Shown: in pieces, positions 6,836 through 17,267 of the stretch | Numbering within the stretch: the first letter of the stretch is position 1 | How the letters are laid out: every line of letters starts with the position of its first letter | From: Candidatus Poribacteria bacterium | Lineage (GTDB): Bacteria; Poribacteria; WGA-4E; WGA-3G | DNA length: 64,000 nt | Assembly: GCA_965205025.1 (NCBI GenBank) | Contig: CBDBFU010000007.1 | Coordinates: 32,001-96,000 of the forward strand | Direction of reading: 5' to 3' | Made by a program: the position numbers and the translations under genes | Notes under the pieces: model-generated | Seen by the model: only the letters and a program-made list of their open reading frames with translations | The model's database searches: none | What the model was told of the DNA's origin: nothing

Positions 6836-7058
6836 TTATAATTGTGGGTTATATAAATTCAATTAAAAATACCACAAATTAGAGTAAAAGTCAAAATGTT
6901 TCTTACTGAATGGGATTGTTATCTAATTTTACGGATTTGGGAGAGTTTTGAAAGGTGGTTTTGAACGGGAAGAGTATAACATGTAAACTAACAGGATGCG
7001 GTACATATATTAGGGACTTTGGAAGCGAGTTTCATTAATAGGAATGTACCTTCTGCTG

Positions 7059-8645
7059 TTAGTTGGTTTCTATAGAAACTTTGGCATTAAAAGCGTTTAT
7101 AGTATCTAATCCTCCCCATTGATCTCCAGTTGCACACAATTTGAAATGTTGTCCTTGATCAAACTTGTACTTAAGTTGAGCGGAGTTCCCTGGGAATATG
7201 CCCCAATATTTAGTTAGTGCGTCAATGGCATTTTTGTATTCATCACTTTGTTGGTCATTCCAAACGTCAGGATCTATTCCGTCTGGAGGTGTTTCCGATG
7301 GTAGTATTTTATCTCCATCAAGTAGATAGAATATTCCAATACCTTTGTCTTTACCGACTTGGATATCGATCGTGAGTGTGCCACCAGTTTCAAATGCTGT
7401 AGTATCTATACCGATAATAGTGTAATCCTGATGTGCGACTTTTAGAGTGCGAAAAGTGTTTAAGATTGTTTGTGATGGTTGTTCATGAGTCAGGATTAGA
7501 TCTCCTAAACCGGGACGTTTTCCCTTTAATGATTCTTTAATGAATGATAGATATAGTTCTTCCTCATTATCGTATTCATCTAAATCGTCCAAGAATTGAT
7601 TATAGTCAAGACTTCCCATCAATTCAAAATCATGTGAGATGACGAAACAGTCTACTGGTGATCCCTGTTTACATCCCTTTAGAATTGTTTTTGCTAAAGG
7701 ATGGTTTGTGTCGAAGGTTGTACCTTCACGTTTTCGTCTATTTGCAATTGGTTCTCTTAAACTGGTCATTCTCCCTAAATCTGCATTTGGCACCCAAGTA
7801 TTGATCAGGTATTCGTTTAAGAAATCAATAATATGATCTTTTGAGAGAGCACCTGCTCTCAGGATTTTTCCACTCCCTCAGCATGATTCGTCAGCGAGGG
7901 GACCGTCAATTGCTATAGCATGTATCGGTTTCTGTAAAGTAGGTGCTAATTCCAAAGCCTCTTCTAATGACACCCAGTTAATTTGTTGGGATTTATAATA
8001 TCGCAGCAACAGCAGACGTTCTGCTTTTTCTTGTATGATTGACTCAATGAATTCTACGTCTTCAAGTTTTGTATCAGTCCATAATTCCATGCGTGGACAG
8101 AAACCGATATCCGCATAGGTGCTTTCTTCTTGTGTCCAACCGATATCGAAGTTTACTGTAGTCGGTGGAACATACATGTTGAAGGAGACTACCTTTTTTT
8201 CTATGTGGTTAATTGTGAGATGTCCAGTAAATTGTGAGGGTGTAAGCCAGCCACTCTCCATCTTGAATTGTGCATGGATACGGAAATGTATTTGAGCGAT
8301 TTCATTATTGTATGCACGCAGGCATGCCCACAATCCGCGTGAATCTCCTGAATCAATATGGAGTTGCAGATGTGGTCGGGGATAGAGTTGTTTCAATAGG
8401 GTTAACACTGCATCTTCTTGGATCTGCCAACAATCTCCTACTACGACTGGATCTGATGAAAGGAATGCCTGAAAGACAGAATTAGTGTACTGTTTCACGG
8501 GTTCAGCAACCTGAATATTTGCCAATTCCTCCCATTCTTTATAATACCCGTAAGAGGAATACTCAAATGGAGCGATATAACCATTTATGGACACATTTGC
8601 GTTCGAATCAAGGTTGAGTATGATTTTGTTAGTTGGATCATTCAT
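7059..8645 (-). CDS. Selenoprotein N-like protein, copy 1 (528 aa with Sec)
   Basis: ORF 7878-8645 continues in frame through TGA 7878-7880 into ORF 7059-7793: DGPLADESC-U-GSGKILRAGALSKDHIIDFLNEYLINTW. Shares WACLRAY, FRIHAxF and TPSQFTGH motifs with SELENON; hairpin downstream of the UGA. Confidence 0.88.
7845..7860 (-). promoter_or_regulatory. Candidate bacterial SECIS apical hairpin, copy 1
   Basis: GAGAGC-AGGU-GCUCUC starting 17 nt after the UGA. Confidence 0.75.
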
Positions 8646-8646
8646 T

Positions 8647-10185
8647 TTACTTTTCCTCTACAGTAATTTTTGCCAGAAATGCATTGATACTTCCTTTCTC
8701 GTCAGATGTCCACCCCATAGCAACCAATTTAAATATCTGTCCCTGTTCAAAACGGTGTGTCATTTGTCCAATTTCACAAGGATCATACCAACCTATATCG
8801 TGTGCATCATCAAACATTATTACTTCCGGACGTTTATGAATTGGATCAAAGGTAAGTTTATGGTCGGCATTGAGCAAAAAGAACGTGCCATAAGCCTTTT
8901 CGTCCCCTACTTCCAAATCAATGGTAAGAGTTCCTCCTTTTTCAAAGTTTGTGGCATCAATTACGATAACTTTGTAGTCTTGGTGTCCATATTCTGGTTT
9001 TCGAAAAACGTCCAGTATCTGTTGTGAAGGCTGGTCAGGGGTGAGAATAGTGTTACCGAATCCCGGGAGTTTTCCATCTAAAGCATCCTTGAGAAACAGG
9101 AGGTAATTCTGGCTTTCCAAAGTGCCGTCTTCACGTCGATTTTCCCCAAGGTAATCATTGACGGCTACATGTCCTATTGCTTCCAGGATAGGAGATATGA
9201 CCCATGTATCCACTGGACCTCTTCGCCATTTGTGCCCAATGATTGTGCGTGCCAATGGAGGCATTTTCTCAAATCCTTGGGAATCCCGCATGTGTTTAAG
9301 GTCAGTATTACGTACCCACATATTGATAAAATTTTCGTTCAGGAATTCGATGATTCGTTCGTCGGAGAGGACACCTGCCCTCAAGTTTTTGCCACTTCCT
9401 CAGCATGCTTCGTCTGCGAGGGGACCATCGATTGAAATGGCATGGATCGGTTTCTGTTGCTCTTGTGATATTTTTAATGCTTCATCAAATGGCACCCAGT
9501 TGATTTGCTGCGACTTATAAAAACGTTGTATTAGCGTATTTTCGACCTCTTCACAGGTGATTGAAGTTATGAATGCAGTTTCCTGATGGACATAATGCTT
9601 TTCTGCCCGAAGTTCAATATGCGGACAAATCCCACCACCAGTACTATAATAATAGTCAGGTTCGTCTTTATATTTTTTCCAATTAACATCGAACAATGTC
9701 CCTTCAGGAACCCGCATCTGGAAAAACGCCACACTCTTATTAATACGATCGATCACCAGATGTCCGGCAAACTGTGAAGGGGTGAACCAACCGTCTTCTA
9801 ATGCGAATTCTGCATGGATACGGAACGTAATATCGGCGAGTTCATCGCTATAAGCGCGGAGACATGCCCATAAACCACATGAATCACCCCTGTTAATGTG
9901 CATATCCAGATTCGGTTTGGCATGAAACTGCCTCAACAAGGTAAGAGCCCCTTGGTCATCAATCTCCCAGTAGTCTCCAACGGAGACAGGTTTATCTGGA
10001 AGGAACGCCTGGAAAACCGTAGTAGGATACGTCTTTTCTGGTTCAGCAACGCAGAAATTTGCCAATGCATCCCATTCTTCATGGAAGTTGGGGTTCATGT
10101 GCTCAATCGGTGCGATAACACCTGTGAGGGAGACTTCTGCATCATTGATAAGTTTAAGTGTTATTTTATTTTCCGTTTTTTTCAA
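8647..10185 (-). CDS. Selenoprotein N-like protein, copy 2 (512 aa with Sec)
   Basis: In-frame TGA 9400-9402: DGPLADEAC-U-GSGKNLRAGVLSDERIIEFLNENFINMW. Confidence 0.88.
9367..9382 (-). promoter_or_regulatory. Candidate bacterial SECIS apical hairpin, copy 2
   Basis: GAGGGC-AGGU-GUCCUC starting 17 nt after the UGA. Confidence 0.75.
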
Positions 10186-11719
10186 TTTTATTTTCCTTTA
10201 CAGAAATTTTTGCGAGAAAGGCGTTAGTACAGAATTCTCCTTCGTACCAATAGCCTGAAGCCCCTAACCTAAAGATCTGACCCTGGTCAAATTGGTGTTT
10301 AATCTGTAATTCATCATCTGGTTCACCCCAGGTTTCAGCGAGTGCATCACTCGGTTCTTCTTCATCAGTAGATAGTTCACCTTTTTCAGCAAATAGATAA
10401 AACTCACCATCCCCTTTTTCTCTACCGATTTTAATATCAATTGTAAGTGTGCCTCCATTCTCAAAAGATGTTACGTCAATTACGATTACAGTATAATCTA
10501 AATAACCTACAGTAGGTGTTCTAATAACATCCAACACCTCCTCTGAAGAATTCTCAGGAGTAAGTACAATATTTCCCAATCCGGGTTCTTTTCCCTCCAA
10601 CGCATCCTTTAGAAACATTTTGTAATTTTCAGCACTGGTAGGTATACCCGGTCCTGCGTTGACTTCAAGTTCCCTTATCTGTTTTTTACCTAATAAAACA
10701 AGTTCAGAGGATAGAATGTATGAATCTACTGGAGATCCTTTTCTTGATCCAGTTTTAGTGCCTTTAAGGATAGCTTGTGCTAATGGAAGTGTTGCGTCAA
10801 ACGGATTTCCTTCCCGTTCGCGTTTTTTGGCAATCGGTGCTTGTAATCTACGTACACGTCCTAATTCAGAGTTGGATACCCATGTATTGATAAAGTTATT
10901 ATTTAGAAATTCAATAATTGTGTTTTTTGAGAGGACACCTGCCCTCAATCCTTTACCACTCGCTCAGCATGATTCATCGAAAAGCGGTCCATCTAATATG
11001 ACAGCATGGATGGGTTTCTGTTGTGCCAGTGCCATTTCATGTGCTTCCTGCAGCGATACCCAGTTGATTTTTACTAAATTGTAGAAACGTAATATCAATA
11101 TGCGTTCGGCTTCCTCTTGTGTGATTGAGGTAGCGTATTCAACGTTCTGAAATGTTATGTCAGAACGGAGTTCTATTTTTGGACAATATCCAATTTCGCT
11201 TCCAACTTTATCCTGATAAGCATCAAAGTTTATTGTACCATTTGGCACATACATATTAAAGAATGCGACGTTTTCTGTGGACCGGTTAATTACGATGTGA
11301 CCAGTAAATTGCGAGGGTGTAAATCTACCTCCAATAAGTGTGAATTCTGCATGAATTCGAAACACGATGTCAGCATAATCATCATTATATGCGCGTAGGC
11401 ATGCCCACAGACCGAGTGAATCCCCATTATTGCAGTCCAAATTCAAGTTAGGGTTGGTATGAAGTTGGCTTAGTATTTCTAACACACCGTCCCTGATTTG
11501 CCAACATTCACCAACCGAAACGGAATCCGAAGGTAGAAATGCATTAAACACAGAAGTTGGATGTTGTTTTTCCGGTTCCGAGACTCGTAGATTTGCTAAG
11601 ACATCCCATTCTTCATGGAAGTTGAATTGTGTGTATTCTATTGGAGCAATATAACCTTTTAAGGCTACTTTCGTATCGCTATTAAGTGTGAGTGTAATTT
11701 TCTCAGATATTGTGTTCAT
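10166..11719 (-). CDS. Selenoprotein N-like protein, copy 3 (517 aa with Sec)
   Basis: In-frame TGA 10964-10966: DGPLFDESC-U-ASGKGLRAGVLSKNTIIEFLNNNFINTW. Confidence 0.88.
10931..10946 (-). promoter_or_regulatory. Candidate bacterial SECIS apical hairpin, copy 3
   Basis: GAGGGC-AGGU-GUCCUC starting 17 nt after the UGA. Confidence 0.75.
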
Positions 11720-11778
11720 TGGTCTTCTCTATTTTTAAAATCAGTTTAAATTATTACTAAACTTTTGACAATTTTATG

Positions 11779-11910
11779 TTATACCATTTCTATAAATGAT
11801 TCTCCCATGATTAGGTGATATTTATGTCTTGAAATACTGCACAAACTGGAAGTTTGTGCTACATTAAAGAGATTTTATTAATGGGACTTTAATTACCAGA
11901 AATGGTATAA
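11779..11910. mobile_element. MITE-like element, family A, with internal GTAG-type REP hairpin
   Basis: Terminal inverted repeat TTATACCATTTCT...AGAAATGGTATAA; internal GCACAAACTGGAAGTTTGTGCTAC; related copies at 17149-17267 and 18351-18464. Confidence 0.7.
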
Positions 11911-11911
11911 T

Positions 11912-13228
11912 TTATAATTCAGACTCTATAAAAATATTTGCAAAAAAAGAATTAGTGCTTCCTTTTTCATTAATGAAAGTGTTGCCAATTGCTCTCAACT
12001 GAAATATTGTGCCTTTGTCAAAATAGTGTGTTATTCTTCCAGTTTTACCACTCGGAATGCCTGATGCGGTAGCAACTATGCTACTTTGTACTCCTTCCTT
12101 AGAGCGTTCGGCTTTGCCATCAAATAGGGAAAATGATCCAGAAGCATTTGCGCTACCTACCCAGATTTCAATGGTAAGGGTGCCACCATCCTTGTAGGCT
12201 GTCGTATCAATTTGAACAATAGTGTAATCATTAGAATCTGCGTTTGGCGTTCGGAATATTCCTAAAACATTTTTTGACGACTCCTCGCTGTTGAGTACTA
12301 CATTTTCAATTGGATCAATGGACGATATGCTATCTGATTCTGTAGTAGCCCCATTGCTCTTACCAGTGACATCAGAATGTCCTACTCGCTTTCTCACATC
12401 CATTTTTGATGGCACATTCAGAACTGCGGGTACATCAACAATAGCAACAGTCTTTTCTGATATTGCATCATAATCATACGGTTCTTGGAAATGGGTTAAG
12501 TATTGATTACCTATCCCATACATCAAGGTCATAACAACAAAGATTGAAGCGGCGATTATCCACGGAACAATAGGTTTATTTTCAGGGGTAATAGAAGGTT
12601 TTATTCGACAAACCTCTTGGAGAATATTCTTTGTTAGATTTGGCGAGATTTTAAAATGTTCTAATGCTTCCCTAATTATTAATTCATTTTTCTTTAAACG
12701 TTGTCGACCACGTCGGAGACGACTCTTAACAGTGCTTAGTGATACACCTAACATTTTACTAATTTCTGCACATGTCATTTCTCCTAAATAATGAAGCGTC
12801 ATCACAGTCCGTTCACTCTCCTGCAACTTTGATAGTAGTGTCTTTACTACTTCACGTTGAGAGTTGACAGTAGCTTTTTCCTTATCCTCTGCTACATATC
12901 TGGAATAAGCATCATTTTCTATCAAGTCATTGACCTTGTCATCTAACACCTCGGTTTGTAGATGGTTTTTTCGTAACCAGGCAAGACAACACCGTGAAGT
13001 AACAACATAAAGCCATCCAAGAAACTGTTTTGGATCTTTAAGAGTTGACAACTTCTGATATACTCTCAAAAATGTATCTTGAGTAATATCCTCAGCAATA
13101 TGGAAGTCCCCTATTTTCCGCCATGCAATTGCATGAACATGCTTTTGATATCTTTCAACTAAGGTGGAAAAAGCAGTGTCATCACCTTCAAGGATACGGT
13201 GAATTAATACTACATCGTCGTTTTCCAT
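11912..13228 (-). CDS. ECF sigma-70 factor with transmembrane helix and a C-terminal domain shared with the SelN-like proteins
   Basis: Region 2 AEDITQDTFLRVY..FLGWLY; region 4 EISKMLGVSLSTVKSRLRRGR; hydrophobic WIIAASIFVVMTLMYGI; C-terminal FRTP..DYT..IDTT..GGTLTI domain; start at ATG 13228 after GAGG. Confidence 0.88.
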   Translation of the reverse strand: MENDDVVLIHRILEGDDTAFSTLVERYQKHVHAIAWRKIGDFHIAEDITQDTFLRVYQKLSTLKDPKQFLGWLYVVTSRCCLAWLRKNHLQTEVLDDKVNDLIENDAYSRYVAEDKEKATVNSQREVVKTLLSKLQESERTVMTLHYLGEMTCAEISKMLGVSLSTVKSRLRRGRQRLKKNELIIREALEHFKISPNLTKNILQEVCRIKPSITPENKPIVPWIIAASIFVVMTLMYGIGNQYLTHFQEPYDYDAISEKTVAIVDVPAVLNVPSKMDVRKRVGHSDVTGKSNGATTESDSISSIDPIENVVLNSEESSKNVLGIFRTPNADSNDYTIVQIDTTAYKDGGTLTIEIWVGSANASGSFSLFDGKAERSKEGVQSSIVATASGIPSGKTGRITHYFDKGTIFQLRAIGNTFINEKGSTNSFFANIFIESEL

Positions 13229-13314
13229 TAGATACCTCAATGAAGACTTCCCATTACTCATGCAAGTCAGATACATTTTGTATGAAAGAACATGCTAACA
13301 ACCTGAACCTTTCT

Positions 13315-14964
13315 CTATCTACTTTGTTCTATTGATATTGTTAGTAGAAATGCATTCATGCTTCCTTCATCACTAAACCAATTACCCGTAGCCCCGAGTT
13401 TAAAGACTTGACCTTTCTTAAATTTATACCTGATGATTTTACTATTACCGGGTGATATGTCCCATGCGTTGACGAGTGCGTCTCTTGGAACCCCTTCCGT
13501 GGGAATCTTTGTCTGATTATCAAACAGATCAAATGAACCACTTGCTTCAGCACTCCCGACCGAGATATCAATAGAAAGTATACCGCCGTTAATAAAGGCA
13601 GTGGTGTCCAATTTCAATGACAGTATAATCTTGATGACCCCTTTTTGGTGTTCGAAAAACGTTGAGGATTTGTTGTTGAGATTTCTCTGCAGTGAGTTTA
13701 ACTTTTTGCCCTTTCACTATTGCAGGATCTAAGTTATCTATCACTTCAACATCTAACCCTGGGTATTCCCCTGCTAATGCCTCTTGTAAAAACACGAAGT
13801 AATCCCGTCCCCAGTTTGATGATGGAAATTCATTGACCGGTTGTCTCCCCATAACTTCAAGATCTGTTGAGATTACTAAAGAGTCTGCTGGTGAACGCTC
13901 TTTCCAACCTTTGATGACGGCTTGAATTAATGGGTCATTTTTGTCTAATTTACGAAATCCCTCTTCCTGTCTTTTCGTGATATAAGCGTGCATTACTGAT
14001 GTGCGTCCTAATTCTATATTTGATACCCAAGTATTAATAAACTTATCGTTCAATAATTGTATATTCCGTTTATTAGAGAGGGCAACTGGCCCTCAAGGCT
14101 TTGCCACTTCCTCAGCAGGCTTCGTCATTCATCGGACCATCTATTGAGATAACATGGATCGGTTTATCTTGTTTCTTGTGCCAACCTTAACGCATCATCA
14201 AGAGGAACCCAATTAATTTGGTAAAAACTATAAAAACGATGTGCAAGAGTCATCTCTGCTGCCTGTTGTGTAATGGATTCTTCGAATTGGATATTCTCCA
14301 AAATATATCTTGTGTCCCACTACGGAGTTCCATTTGTGTACAGACACCAGAATCTATTATACTATAATCCCTATCTTTATATTTTTTCCATCCAACATCA
14401 AAGTTAATTACCCCATCAGGGACATACATATTGAAGAACACTACCTTTTTTTCCATGCGATCAAGTATGAGATGTCCCTTAAACTGTGATGGCGTGAACC
14501 GACCGTCTTTTAACTCAAACTCTGCATGAATTCGAAACACGATGTCAGCATATTTATCGTTATAGGCACGTAGACATGCCAACAATCCATAGGAATCTCC
14601 GGAGTCAATGTGCATAGAATACTTTGGTTTTTGGGAGGAGTTGTTGCAATAATGGGAGTATTCCTTCCGCATTTATTTTCCACAGTTCACCAACTGAAAC
14701 CGGTTTGTCTGGCAGAAAAGCCTGAAAAACCGTTGTTGGATGCTGTTTTTCCGGTTCGTTTTCCCGTAGATTTGCTAATGCATCCCACTCCAAATGGAAA
14801 TTGTTTATAGTTATCTCAATCGGAGCAATGAATGCGTTGACTGATATCTGTGATGTATCTTCAATAGTAAGCAATACTTTTTCTCCGTTCACTAAACTGT
14901 CATCTGCGAAAATATGGCAGTTGATTAAAATCAAAATAGAACAATACAAAATTACGATTTTCAT
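13315..14964 (-). CDS. Selenoprotein N-like protein, copy 4, with signal peptide; about five frameshifts (errors or pseudogene)
   Basis: Fragments 14605-14964, 14250-14672, 13589-14053 and 13315-13617 tile a full copy; DGPMNDEAC-TGA(14112-14114)-GSGKALRA read directly; N-terminus MKIVILYCSILILINCHIFA. Confidence 0.75.
14078..14094 (-). promoter_or_regulatory. Candidate bacterial SECIS apical hairpin, copy 4
   Basis: GAGGGC-CAGUU-GCCCUC starting 17 nt after the UGA; the loop carries the extra base that shifts the frame. Confidence 0.6.
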
Positions 14965-15026
14965 TTCAAGAATCCTTTCTATTTGTGTATTTATAGTAAA
15001 CTTTAGATTTAATTAGACACTTTACT

Positions 15027-15070
15027 TGTAGGAGCGACCTCCTGGTCGCGACCGGGAGGTCGCTCCTACA
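15027..15070. repeat. GTAG-type REP palindrome (44 bp)
   Basis: TGTAGGAGCGACCTCCTGGTC-GC-GACCGGGAGGTCGCTCCTACA, near-perfect inverted repeat. Confidence 0.75.
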
Positions 15071-15463
15071 GAAGAGGTGTGGGACGCGAACGTAAGTTGA
15101 TCCAATAGAAAATGTAGTATTCATTTTATTGTTTACTATAATACACAATGAATTTACTGCTATCAACAGTATTTCTACACATAGAAACTCGGACATTATT
15201 GTTATGGCAAATATTTTTGTATACTTTTATTTAGGTCATACGATCACTCACAAGTTAGTCAACGAGAAATAAAAAATGACAACCTAAAAGAAATCATGCA
15301 ACATTTCCTAATTGAACAATATAGTGACGCGTGTAATGTATAAAACGGTTGCGTAATTCTGCATATTCTTGATGAAATAATCGAGATATAATCATTAAAA
15401 TAACATACTCAGATATAGTAATTATGATTTTACCTGTCTAAAATATGTAGGTGACAACTTGGT

Positions 15464-17126
15464 TTATTCTACAGATATTCTTGCTTGAAATGCATTGACA
15501 GAATCTTTACTATCCTTTATTTCCGAGGCTGCTAATGCAAACCTGAAATGTTGGCTACGGTAGAATGGGTACGAAATTTTCGCTGTTCCATTTTGAGGGA
15601 CATCTGTTGCATTTGCAATGGATTGATCGTATCGTTGTCCTCGTTTTTGTGGGAATTGAATGTCTCCTTCGTATAAATAGCAGGAAGTAATGAATTCTGC
15701 ACTTCCAAACCGTATATCAATGTTAAGTGTGCCACCATTTTCGAATGCGGTGGCATCAATATTTACAATAGTGGACTCCTGAAAACCTGCCTTGGGAGTT
15801 CTTACAACATCTACCACTTCTAATGTGGATTGTTCGGAATTGAGAACTACATCTAAACCAGTTATGTAAGGTATTAATGGATTTTTTTGTTCATTTGTAT
15901 CTTCCACATCTTCTAACAGATAAGCGAATGAATTGTCAGTATTGAATCCAGGTAATTTTCTTTCTAATGACTCAATGAGAAAGAGACGGTAGTTTTCTGC
16001 TCTTGTTCTACCCCCATCCCAATCGTGTCCATCGTAAAGATATTTGTTCAAGGGTAGTTTACCTATCACTTCAAAATCAGGTGATATAACAAGGCAATCA
16101 ACAGGAGATCTCTCATGCCAACCCTCTTTAATTGCTTGTGCTAAAGCATGATTCGTATCAAACGTTTTTTCCTTGTCCGCATATCTTTTAGCGATGTATT
16201 CCCGGGAACTCGGTTTCCGTCCTGCTTCAAAATTGGATACCCATGTGTTGATGAAGTTATCGTTTAGAAATTTAATGACACGTTCATTTCCGAGGACACC
16301 TGCCCTCAAGTCTTTTCCGCTCCCTCAGCAGGCTTCATCAGTAAGTGGTCCATCAAGTGAAATAGCATGAACAGGTTTCTGTTGCTTTGGTGCTAATTCA
16401 AGTGCTTCTTCTAACGAAACCCAGTTAATCTGTTGTGAATCATAGAATTTCAGAATTAGGTTGTGTTCTGCTTCCTCTTGACTAATGGCTTGTGTGTATT
16501 TGACACCATTTAAGACCTCTTCTGAACCTGTCCATAGTTCCATTCTTGAGCAGTAACCACAGTCAGTGATCCACCGTGGTTTATCCCAGTCATCTAATAT
16601 AGTTTCCCAATGTACATCGAAGTTTAATGTGCCTTCCGGTACACCCATTTGAAAGTATGATACAGATTCTTGTGTGCGGTCAATTACAAGGAGTCCAGCA
16701 AACTGTGAAGGTGTAAACCAACCATCAGTGAGTGCGAATTCAGCATGAATCCGGAATACAATATGAGCGAGTTGATTGTTGTATGCCCGTAAACATGCGC
16801 GGAGACCTTTTGCTTCCTCTATACCGTACATTTCTACACGCATTTCTAAAGATGGATTAGGATGGAGTTGTTTTAACAGTCTTGTTGCCGTGCCTTGTTT
16901 TATGTCCCAGCATTCACCCACTGCGACAGATTCAGGTGGGAGAAAGTCATGAAAATCGGAATGAGAATACTGACTTTCTGGTTCTGCGGTTTGCCAATTT
17001 GCTAATGCATCCCATTTTTTCGTGAAAGTTTCCAGCAGTATGTTGGATTGGTGCTATTGTTGCATTTACGGTGATTTCTGTTTTACTGTTTATGTTTAAG
17101 TTAATTTTATCTGTATGTGTATTCAT
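15464..17126 (-). CDS. Selenoprotein N-like protein, copy 5 (about 553 aa with Sec); +1 homopolymer frameshift at 17015-17020
   Basis: In-frame TGA 16325-16327: DGPLTDEAC-U-GSGKDLRAGVLGNERVIKFLNDNFINTW; N-terminus MNTHTDKINLN..TIAPI..NFHEKWDALAN restored by removing one base. Confidence 0.85.
16292..16307 (-). promoter_or_regulatory. Candidate bacterial SECIS apical hairpin, copy 5
   Basis: GAGGGC-AGGU-GUCCUC starting 17 nt after the UGA. Confidence 0.75.
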
Positions 17127-17148
17127 CTGATTTCTCTAATTTATCTAA

Positions 17149-17267
17149 TTATACCATTTCTATAAATTATTGTCTCATTAGGCGGTGATTATGGTAGTCA
17201 TTTTTCAGGTCACAAACTGGAAGTTTGTGGTACAAAAAAGAGACATTTTCAATTAGAAATGGTTTAA
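17149..17267. mobile_element. MITE-like element, family A
   Basis: TTATACCATTTCT...AGAAATGGTTTAA ends and internal CACAAACTGGAAGTTTGTG hairpin. Confidence 0.65.

Follow-up and report, generated by a model that had tools for sequence, protein, structure and literature searches.

Candidate SECIS hairpins within the coding regions of bacterial SelenoN-like genes in Candidatus Poribacteria and their relatives

In eukaryotes, the selenoprotein N gene (SELENON, also called SEPN1) relies on a selenocysteine (Sec) insertion sequence (SECIS) in its 3' untranslated region (3'UTR), with which a second RNA element, the Sec codon redefinition element (SRE), acts together and without SelB. In the available portions of PMC8584023 and PMC4561486 the SEPN1 SRE is described as a hairpin beside the UGA that favours recoding and in which disease variants are found, and the SCUG motif of the eukaryotic protein is described in the accessible part of PMC12839072. 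For the bacterial SECIS (bSECIS), the model of Zhang and Gladyshev, as relayed in the available text of PMC13188914, has a loop of 3-9 nucleotides (nt) with a G in its first two positions, a stem of 4-16 bp, 16-37 nt between the UGA and the loop, and a minimum free energy (MFE) of -7.5 kcal/mol or lower. We have analysed a 64,000-nt stretch of DNA from Candidatus Poribacteria bacterium (GenBank assembly GCA_965205025.1, contig CBDBFU010000007.1, positions 32,001 to 96,000), referred to below as the window, which carries on its minus strand, at 7059-17126, five tandem paralogous genes with one in-frame TGA apiece. Each TGA is followed by a short hairpin, and the encoded proteins appear to be bacterial relatives of eukaryotic SelenoN. 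We put at roughly 0.85 the probability that each hairpin is a functional bSECIS that would be bound by SelB and would direct Sec insertion at a Cys-Sec (C-U) site, the binding and the insertion being argued from the known bacterial pathway.

The hairpin downstream of the UGA

A preliminary description of this DNA had placed a 6-bp stem exactly 17 nt past each of the five UGAs, with identical stem and loop sequences in copies 2, 3 and 5 and variants in copies 1 and 4, and all of these particulars are found in the sequence (Table 1). The pattern TGA-N17-GAGRGC occurs six times in the window, as compared to 0.54 expected from shuffles (0 of 100 shuffles reach six), and five of the six matches are the in-frame TGAs of the paralogs, each within the motif D-E-[AS]-C-U-[GA]-S-G-K-x-L-R-A-G-[VA]-L. 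The sixth, at 1687-1712 on the minus strand, is in no open frame and was set aside as a chance match. The two pair changes reported for copy 1 are also present, i.e., pair 24-33 (numbering from the U of the UGA as 1) has gone from G-C to A-U at two third codon positions, and pair 25-32 from G-U to G-C. The paralogous proteins are only 44-51% identical to copy 2, and the hairpin is therefore conserved far better than its surroundings, as had been claimed.

The comparison was extended to relatives in Poribacteria-type genomes, Planctomycetota and metagenomes, which gave 111 unique UGA contexts; 110 of these are taken as bacterial and one (L090) as eukaryotic. A perfect hairpin of at least 6 bp that starts at nt 15-22 is present in all 111, in 40 variants that belong to three designs. 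In design A the hairpin GAGGGC-AG[GU]U-GUCCUC is written on the codons L-R-A-[GV]-[VA]-L. In design B residue +10 is Pro, Glu or Gln and the 3' arm is shifted by 2 nt, which gives GAGRGCG-GGUC-CGCUCUC or a 6-nt loop. The remaining one, which we call the second design, is [GA][GA]CCCUC-CGUGC-GAGGG[UC][UC] (e.g., GACCCUC-CGUGC-GAGGGUC), starts 11 nt past the UGA and lies on x-L-R-A-R-[VA], with L-R-A spelled CTC CGT GCG as against TTG AGG GCA. About half of the relatives have the loop AGUU rather than AGGU. Several of the changes between relatives preserve the structure: pair 24-33 changes from G-C to A-U, pair 25-32 from G-U to G-C or A-U, and the first pair from G-C to C-G, the last by a change of Leu to Phe on one arm that is matched on the second arm by either a Ser to Cys replacement or a change of CTC to CTG, and in a second-design locus of the Planctomycetota (L098) two pairs are flipped from C-G to G-C. 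Across the 71 rows that can be aligned in register A, 423 of 426 cells (99.3%) pair, as compared to 49-76% when the 3' arm is slid, and there are two pairs with two-sided changes (5 cells) and two with one-sided changes only (4 and 22 cells). The preliminary description had called the hairpin covarying and had proposed RNAalifold as a check. The helix that the program predicts is exactly this one, and it finds no other conserved structure within nt 1-48. The covariation among the closest relatives proves modest, most of what is seen being conservation. In a mixed alignment (A7; 23 register-B rows and 5 of the second design) register B pairs in 84.5% of cells and the second-design register in 52%, both values being diluted by the mixing of designs and saying little by themselves.

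All features of the bSECIS model are found together in 109 of the 110 bacterial contexts when the MFE is taken over 60 nt, and in 98 of the 110 when the free energy (dG) of the bare hairpin is used. Loop and stem sizes fall within the model in every one (loops of 4-6 nt and stems of 6-8 bp; in the window, loops of 4 nt, or 5 nt in copy 4), and so does the spacing from the UGA to the loop, which is 23 nt in 89 contexts (the window copies included), 24 nt in 15 and 18 nt in 6. A G stands first or second in the loop in 109, the exception being L089, a metagenome contig whose domain of origin is uncertain. The loop of copies 1, 2, 3 and 5 is AGGU, and that of copy 4, which is a pseudogene, is CAGUU, with its G third. 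An energy of -7.5 or lower is reached by all 110 over the 60 nt from the UGA and by 98 as a bare hairpin, with values of -8.9 to -10.1 for the hairpins of the window, and the loop contains GU in all 110. The likeness to the model thus comprises a stem-loop within the coding sequence just 3' of the Sec-UGA and a loop G in first or second place followed by G or U. The hairpins described here differ in belonging to a new host gene family, in having neither a lower stem nor a bulge, in having three interchangeable designs within one protein family, and in a 3' arm that slides with the encoded residues.

The formate dehydrogenase gene fdhF of E. coli K-12 (NC_000913.3), in which the UGA is codon 140, does contain GCAGGU at the apex of its SECIS, as the preliminary description had stated, at nt 19-24 from the U of the UGA. 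This hexamer at the stem top and loop, together with a small apical loop containing G-U, is what the two have in common. GCAGGU lies at nt 25-30 here, the loop is 23 nt from the UGA as compared to 18 nt in fdhF (RNAfold), and the fdhF element has a stem interrupted by an unpaired U and, beneath it, a long helix that extends back to the UGA, whereas the hairpins of this family are perfect and short. They are not of the fdhF type, since the apex is 5-6 nt further from the UGA and only GCAGGU is shared.

If the hairpins act as bSECIS elements, then with a ribosome positioned at the UGA the hairpin would sit immediately beyond the mRNA channel, its base being 17 nt and its apical loop 23 nt downstream. 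SelB, loaded with GTP and Sec-tRNA(Sec), would use its C-terminal domain to bind the apical loop, which always has G-U, and Sec-tRNA(Sec) would then be delivered to the A site, so that Sec would be placed next to the Cys of a C-U redox pair and termination would not occur. This is the proposal of the preliminary description, that a bacterial SECIS is embedded in the coding region, and it gains support from the fit of 109 of the 110 bacterial contexts to the model, from selection at synonymous sites, from the rebuilding of the hairpin with different nucleotides and in shifted registers in distant lineages, and from the Sec machinery of the genome, with the part played by SelB argued by analogy.

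The preliminary description had itself raised the contrary possibility that amino-acid constraint alone explains the conservation, and codon choice speaks to this directly. In 98 low-GC contexts, with codon usage taken from the family, Arg +7 is AGG in 88, AGA in 9 and CGG in 1 (family usage of AGG 10%, of AGA 18%), and Leu +11 is CTC in 90 of 97, with CTT in 5 and CTG in 2 (family usage of CTC 17%). At +9, Gly is GGT in 55 of 56 and Val is GTT in 42 of 42, and within codons +6 to +11 GTC is used in 59 of 63; elsewhere in the family the codons favoured at +6 to +11 have a usage of 10-37%. The ratio of observed to expected synonymous diversity collapses to 0.03-0.36 at codons +6 to +11, as compared to 0.45-1.15 elsewhere except at -1 (0.17) and +4 (0.18), and stands at 0.95 for the invariant Leu +20. 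In genomes of 69-74% GC the stem is assembled from rare codons, either AGG/AGA (7 of 7) with GGT (7 of 7) or CGT with AGG (5 of 5), where usage is 5% for AGG, 3% for AGA and 17% for GGT. When codons were resampled from family usage with the peptide kept, the median probability of an equally stable hairpin at the site was 0.015, with p <= 0.05 in 104 of 111 contexts and a mean hairpin dG of -9.3 observed and -2.1 in the null; of the 111 contexts, 3 reached p <= 0.05 when a control region was treated likewise. Amino-acid constraint does not explain the hairpin.

A strong synonymous bias outside the hairpin is seen in the low-GC relatives, with TGC for Cys -1 in 93 of 97, AAA for Lys +4 in 89 of 92 and GGG for Gly +1 in 60 of 87. 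The high-GC relatives are without this flank bias (TGT 7, TGC 6; AAG 8, AAA 3). The biased codons at -1, +1 and +4 may constitute a recoding context.

Several observations weigh against a bSECIS function, and we have gathered them here. Rfam gave nine weak matches at E <= 10 within 7000-17200, and no SECIS family is among them. Taken over all 45 nt past the UGA, the MFE is only about 1 standard deviation lower than in the codon-resampled null (mean z -1.07); the signal is specific to the hairpin itself. The stems of the closest relatives are mostly just conserved, with one of the six pairs invariant and only two showing two-sided changes, and the context counts are not independent because the sequences are paralogues and orthologues of one another. 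The peptide L-R-x-x-x-L is conserved also in Cys-containing and eukaryotic homologues, and part of the conservation is therefore at the level of the protein. The DNA of Cys homologues was sought as a control lacking the UGA, and among 401 Planctomycetota genomes queried with the Cys homologue P0124 only TGA forms were found; the one Cys locus, L074, came from a scan of genome contigs and is a match at the level of the motif only. Finally, the hairpin stem is kept in pseudogene copy 4 and in all six orthologues that have GGA or GGC in place of the UGA, three of which have the loop AACU, without G-U; this persistence implies either a recent loss of Sec or some other role.

Two other explanations draw on these points. 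The hairpin may be a by-product of the L-R-A-G-[VA]-L peptide and a local codon bias, with no RNA function, in keeping with the conservation of the peptide in homologues that have Cys at the site or are eukaryotic, and with the modest covariation among close relatives. Against this stand the depletion of synonymous diversity in exactly the stem and loop codons and its near-normal level at Leu +20, the use of rare codons against genomic GC, the resampling result with no signal in the control region, and the encoding of L-R-A by two codon sets, each with its own hairpin, so that this explanation is already largely refuted and we give it very little credence. The hairpin could instead be a SelB-independent recoding helper that slows the ribosome or disfavours the release factor, as SREs are hairpins next to the UGA that promote recoding (available text of PMC8584023 and PMC4561486), with the SelB element lying elsewhere or extending more widely than the 6-bp stem. 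In favour of this are its shortness, its position on the codons that form the apex of the SRE-type hairpin in the eukaryotic exon L090, and its survival in orthologues that have no UGA. Such a role is nonetheless improbable, given the agreement of 109 of the 110 contexts with the bSECIS model, loop G and spacing included, the G-U kept in all of their loops, the RNAalifold prediction of a single conserved structure in nt 1-48 and, in the available text of PMC13188914, no known bacterial SECIS outside the region just 3' of the UGA.

The encoded proteins, the Sec machinery and the spread of the family

A search of 5.8 billion proteins returned 312 relatives, and a profile search of 1.84 billion representatives returned 823. 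Those of the 312 that have a name are from Candidatus Poribacteria, and most are 282-aa pieces that end in ...DE[SA]C because public gene calls cut the family at the UGA; most of the 823 stop at the profile position before the UGA or begin just past it. P0232, P0241 and P0262, all of eukaryote type and with the sequence ...LWGALDDQSC..SGRTLRE... at the site, are matched by the family profile at E 1e-33 to 1e-36. In a BLASTP comparison copy 2 aligns with P0262 (E 2e-24) over 295 columns, the Sec motif among them, beginning at residue 83 of copy 2 and residue 259 of P0262. The animal protein has a transmembrane segment and an EF-hand near its N-terminus. The nearest Atlas cluster to P0262 is named 'Selenoprotein N' (Chordata), and a 283-aa Atlas cluster that is commonest in Candidatus Poribacteria is automatically named 'Putative selenoprotein n 1 (Fragment)'. 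The suggestion that this is the bacterial counterpart of eukaryotic selenoprotein N is thus upheld by both profile and pairwise homology across the Sec motif. The proteins are homologous and have in common C-U-G-S-G followed by x-L-R, with Sec at the same aligned position. The bacterial proteins differ in having no counterpart to the first ~258 residues of P0262, in the extra C-terminal beta-rich domain that many of them carry, and in being encoded in multi-copy tandem arrays. In the bacterial relatives P0124, P0127, P0138 and P0170 the site is Cys-Cys, corresponding to the Sec/Cys pair, and sequence is conserved on both sides of the UGA, strongly so as protein in the residues directly past it. 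From these alignments the proteins are predicted to be SelenoN-like bacterial proteins with a C-U redox pair.

Scans of the proteins against Pfam and NCBIfam gave no family, only a noise match at E 0.14, and a sequence search of the PDB gave no relative at E <= 1. For copy 2, an AlphaFold model built on an alignment of 10 rows (mean pLDDT, the predicted local confidence score, 77.6) places C-U right after a beta-strand and right before the next helix, in an alpha/beta middle domain. A Foldseek comparison of the whole model to the PDB yields weak, generic beta-sandwich matches and one match to a Thioredox_DsbH domain (7tkv_B, 159 columns), which hints that the modelled middle domain of copy 2 may be thioredoxin-like. 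The existence of a solved bacterial SelenoN structure is supported neither by the PDB sequence search nor by PMC7474598, which makes no mention of bacteria. The relatives P0183, P0204 and P0219, which end at the UGA, are extended at the N-terminus by long stretches that vary between them and reach 850 residues in P0183, and the SelenoN-like module has therefore been combined with other domains in uncultured bacteria. A literature search found no paper on a bacterial SelenoN family or on its SECIS, including in the available portions of PMC13326102, PMC13188914 and PMC2398784. The hairpin is very probably a genuine bacterial SECIS, in a selenoprotein family of which the search found no description in print; the automatic database name already hints at the homology.

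The genome carries a tRNA-Sec (78.5 bits, with a cut-off of 47), selB (366 bits, cut-off 242, with model positions 1-579 of 581 matched), selA (599 bits) and selD (364 bits), the last two also above curated cut-offs. With these four genes present, the genome is predicted to be able to make selenoproteins. TGA is the stop of 240 of 1385 long open frames in this genome, and it is therefore not reassigned, i.e., the code is standard. Across the phylum, selB is above its cut-off in 167 of 176 genomes, so nearly universal that its co-occurrence with the family does not discriminate; the four family-bearing genomes without a match are 81-83% complete. The tRNA-Sec gene adjoins selB, 57 nt away on the same strand (G000 C20:46321-48363). 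The selD gene (L091, G000 C4:104148-105074) is itself a selenoprotein gene with one TGA, downstream of which GCUC-CGGGU-GAGC could form a small hairpin whose loop would be 16 nt from the UGA; RNAfold does not select it.

The family is present in 131 of the 176 genomes of the phylum and, among the matches listed, beyond which there are 762 further matches, has the in-frame TGA in every one of them. Many Poribacteria-type genomes have several matches each, which are matches and not copy numbers, and among the matches listed several copies lie side by side on one contig. Where the site can be read in DNA, the aligned column is TGA in 132 of 138 cases and a Gly codon in the other 6. In the 401 sampled Planctomycetota genomes, the P0124 query gave 10 matches, of which 9 have one TGA and the tenth falls short of the site. 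Planctomycetota with a GC content of 66-73% have TGA-bearing relatives, as do 16 metagenome contigs, and a scan of genome contigs gave two Sec-containing Planctomycetota loci and the one Cys match, L074. Among the metagenome contigs, which include L089, L090 is a eukaryotic SELENON exon, because its gene is interrupted by introns. The Gly codons (GGA/GGC) replace the Sec codon in 6 of the 12 species loci of one orthologue group (L062-L067, orthologues of P0001); these forms are close orthologues of TGA forms, and it is Gly that is found there and not Cys. In P0014 and P0015 the Sec site has Trp.

It might be supposed that the UGAs are true stops, in which case the locus would consist of two adjacent genes, for an N-terminal protein of ~260 aa and a C-terminal protein, or of a dead gene, with the hairpin serving, e.g., as a pause or processing site. 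Public gene calls do cut at the UGA, most database members are either the ~282-aa pieces with ...DE[SA]C at their end or pieces that begin directly past the UGA, and two of the five copies in the window are defective. Yet the frame runs on through exactly one TGA in all of the phylum matches listed, the TGA aligns with a Cys of the Cys-Cys pair of homologues and with the Sec of eukaryotic SelenoN, the full Sec machinery is present, and the residues right past the UGA are strongly conserved as protein, all of which makes a reading of the UGAs as stops highly implausible.

Layout of the tandem genes in the window

The coordinates of the genes, their UGAs and the hairpins are collected in Table 1. 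Three of the window copies (1-3) are intact and two (4 and 5) are defective. Copies 1-3 are tightly spaced and partly overlapping. Two U-G pairs lengthen the stem of the copy 5 hairpin to 8 bp (UUGAGGGC/GUCCUCGG), and the change of frame near codon 60 of this copy points to a frameshift or an assembly error. The frame of copy 4 is lost inside the hairpin loop because of an extra C in the loop. Copies 4 and 5 keep the UGA and the hairpin despite their broken frames. Two further intact copies are on another contig of the same genome and have the same UGA, the same 17-nt distance and a hairpin of 6-8 bp.

Table 1. Positions of the predicted SelenoN-like genes, their UGA codons and the associated hairpins in the window
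Feature	Position	Strand	Remarks
Copy 1, predicted SelenoN-like selenoprotein gene	7059..8645	-	528 aa with TGA as Sec; ATG start, TAA stop; intact
Copy 1, predicted Sec codon UGA	7878..7880	-	in frame, motif ADESC-U-GSGK
Copy 1, candidate SECIS hairpin	7845..7860	-	GAGAGC-AGGU-GCUCUC, nt 21-36 (U of UGA = 1), dG -9.5
Copy 2, predicted SelenoN-like selenoprotein gene	8647..10185	-	512 aa, TAA stop, intact
Copy 2, predicted Sec codon UGA	9400..9402	-	
Copy 2, candidate SECIS hairpin	9367..9382	-	GAGGGC-AGGU-GUCCUC, dG -8.9
Copy 3, predicted SelenoN-like selenoprotein gene	10166..11719	-	517 aa, TAA stop, intact
Copy 3, predicted Sec codon UGA	10964..10966	-	
Copy 3, candidate SECIS hairpin	10931..10946	-	GAGGGC-AGGU-GUCCUC
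Copy 4, broken copy (pseudogene)	13315..14964	-	pieces in several frames, extra stops (open reading frame list, tblastn)
Copy 4, former Sec codon UGA (predicted)	14112..14114	-	
Copy 4, hairpin	14078..14094	-	GAGGGC-CAGUU-GCCCUC; 5-nt loop from 1-nt insertion
Copy 5	15464..17126	-	main frame 15464-16921, 485 aa; N-terminal ~60 codons in other frame, 16857-17126
Copy 5, predicted Sec codon UGA	16325..16327	-	
Copy 5, candidate SECIS hairpin	16290..16309	-	core GAGGGC-AGGU-GUCCUC (16292-16307), dG -10.1

Copies 1-3 begin at ...NKITL... and are without the hydrophobic N-terminal leader of many relatives (e.g., P0017 and P0040); a cytoplasmic location is possible, or the starts may have been set wrongly. 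A 454-aa gene with no TGA is located between copies 3 and 4, at 11912-13276 on the minus strand. Its N-terminus is of the extracytoplasmic function (ECF) sigma-70 type (Pfam Sigma70_r2 and r4), and its C-terminal ~130 residues share homology with the beta-rich domain at the C-terminus of the SelenoN-like family. In the distant relatives P0127 and P0201, an ECF-sigma-like N-terminus is fused directly to the SelenoN-like domain.

The eukaryotic SELENON hairpin and the wider meaning of the family

The one eukaryotic context among the 111 allows the bacterial hairpins to be set beside an SRE-type hairpin. The exon L090 has a 39-nt hairpin that starts 6 nt past the UGA (MFE -33.3). The apical helix of this hairpin (CUCCGGG-AAGGACC-CCUGGAG, nt 19-39) is written on the codons L-R-x-G-P-L, the same ones that carry the bacterial hairpin at nt 21-38. 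The L090 hairpin differs in having an extra lower helix of 8 bp, a loop without G-U and pairs that are 1 nt off the bacterial registers. In position, too, the bacterial hairpins are unlike this SRE-type element, with stems that start 17 nt (or 11 nt) past the UGA as compared to 6 nt. In a quick tree (Shimodaira-Hasegawa-like approximate likelihood ratio, SH-aLRT, support only; unrooted and displayed with a midpoint root), the three proteins of eukaryote type group together in one clade (98), with L089 as its neighbour (97), and this clade is nested inside a group of bacterial sequences (86-89).

Mariotti et al. 2015 (PMC4561486), in the portion available, proposed that SREs descend from bSECIS elements, at least in SPS/SelD genes. 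That the bacterial SelenoN hairpin and the eukaryotic SELENON SRE are homologues, i.e., one RNA element inherited with its gene across domains, is a tentative idea that we think is less likely to be right than wrong. The element would have served bacteria as a SelB-binding SECIS and persisted as an aid to read-through after eukaryotes had come to use a 3'UTR SECIS, or it would have taken the reverse course after a transfer of the gene from a eukaryote to a bacterium. The tree and the shared codons are compatible with a common ancestry of the two RNA elements and are no proof of it. Against it, there is one eukaryotic DNA sequence, the registers are 1 nt apart, and the two hairpins may have converged on a shared peptide motif.

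If the two elements do prove to be homologous, the hypothesis of Mariotti et al. 2015, as stated in the available text, would gain its cleanest test case, within the one gene that has a characterised SRE and disease mutations. The family as a whole very probably adds to the bacterial selenoproteome a large and mostly mis-annotated group of selenoproteins, distributed over Poribacteria-type genomes, Planctomycetota and diverse metagenomes, and provides bacterial, genetically tractable relatives for SELENON, a human muscle-disease gene whose biochemistry is poorly understood. It also lets the upkeep of a probable SECIS in the face of a changing protein be followed within one family, through sliding arms, flipped pairs and a second design, and it offers a concrete test of whether the SRE hairpins of eukaryotes descend from the SECIS elements of bacteria.

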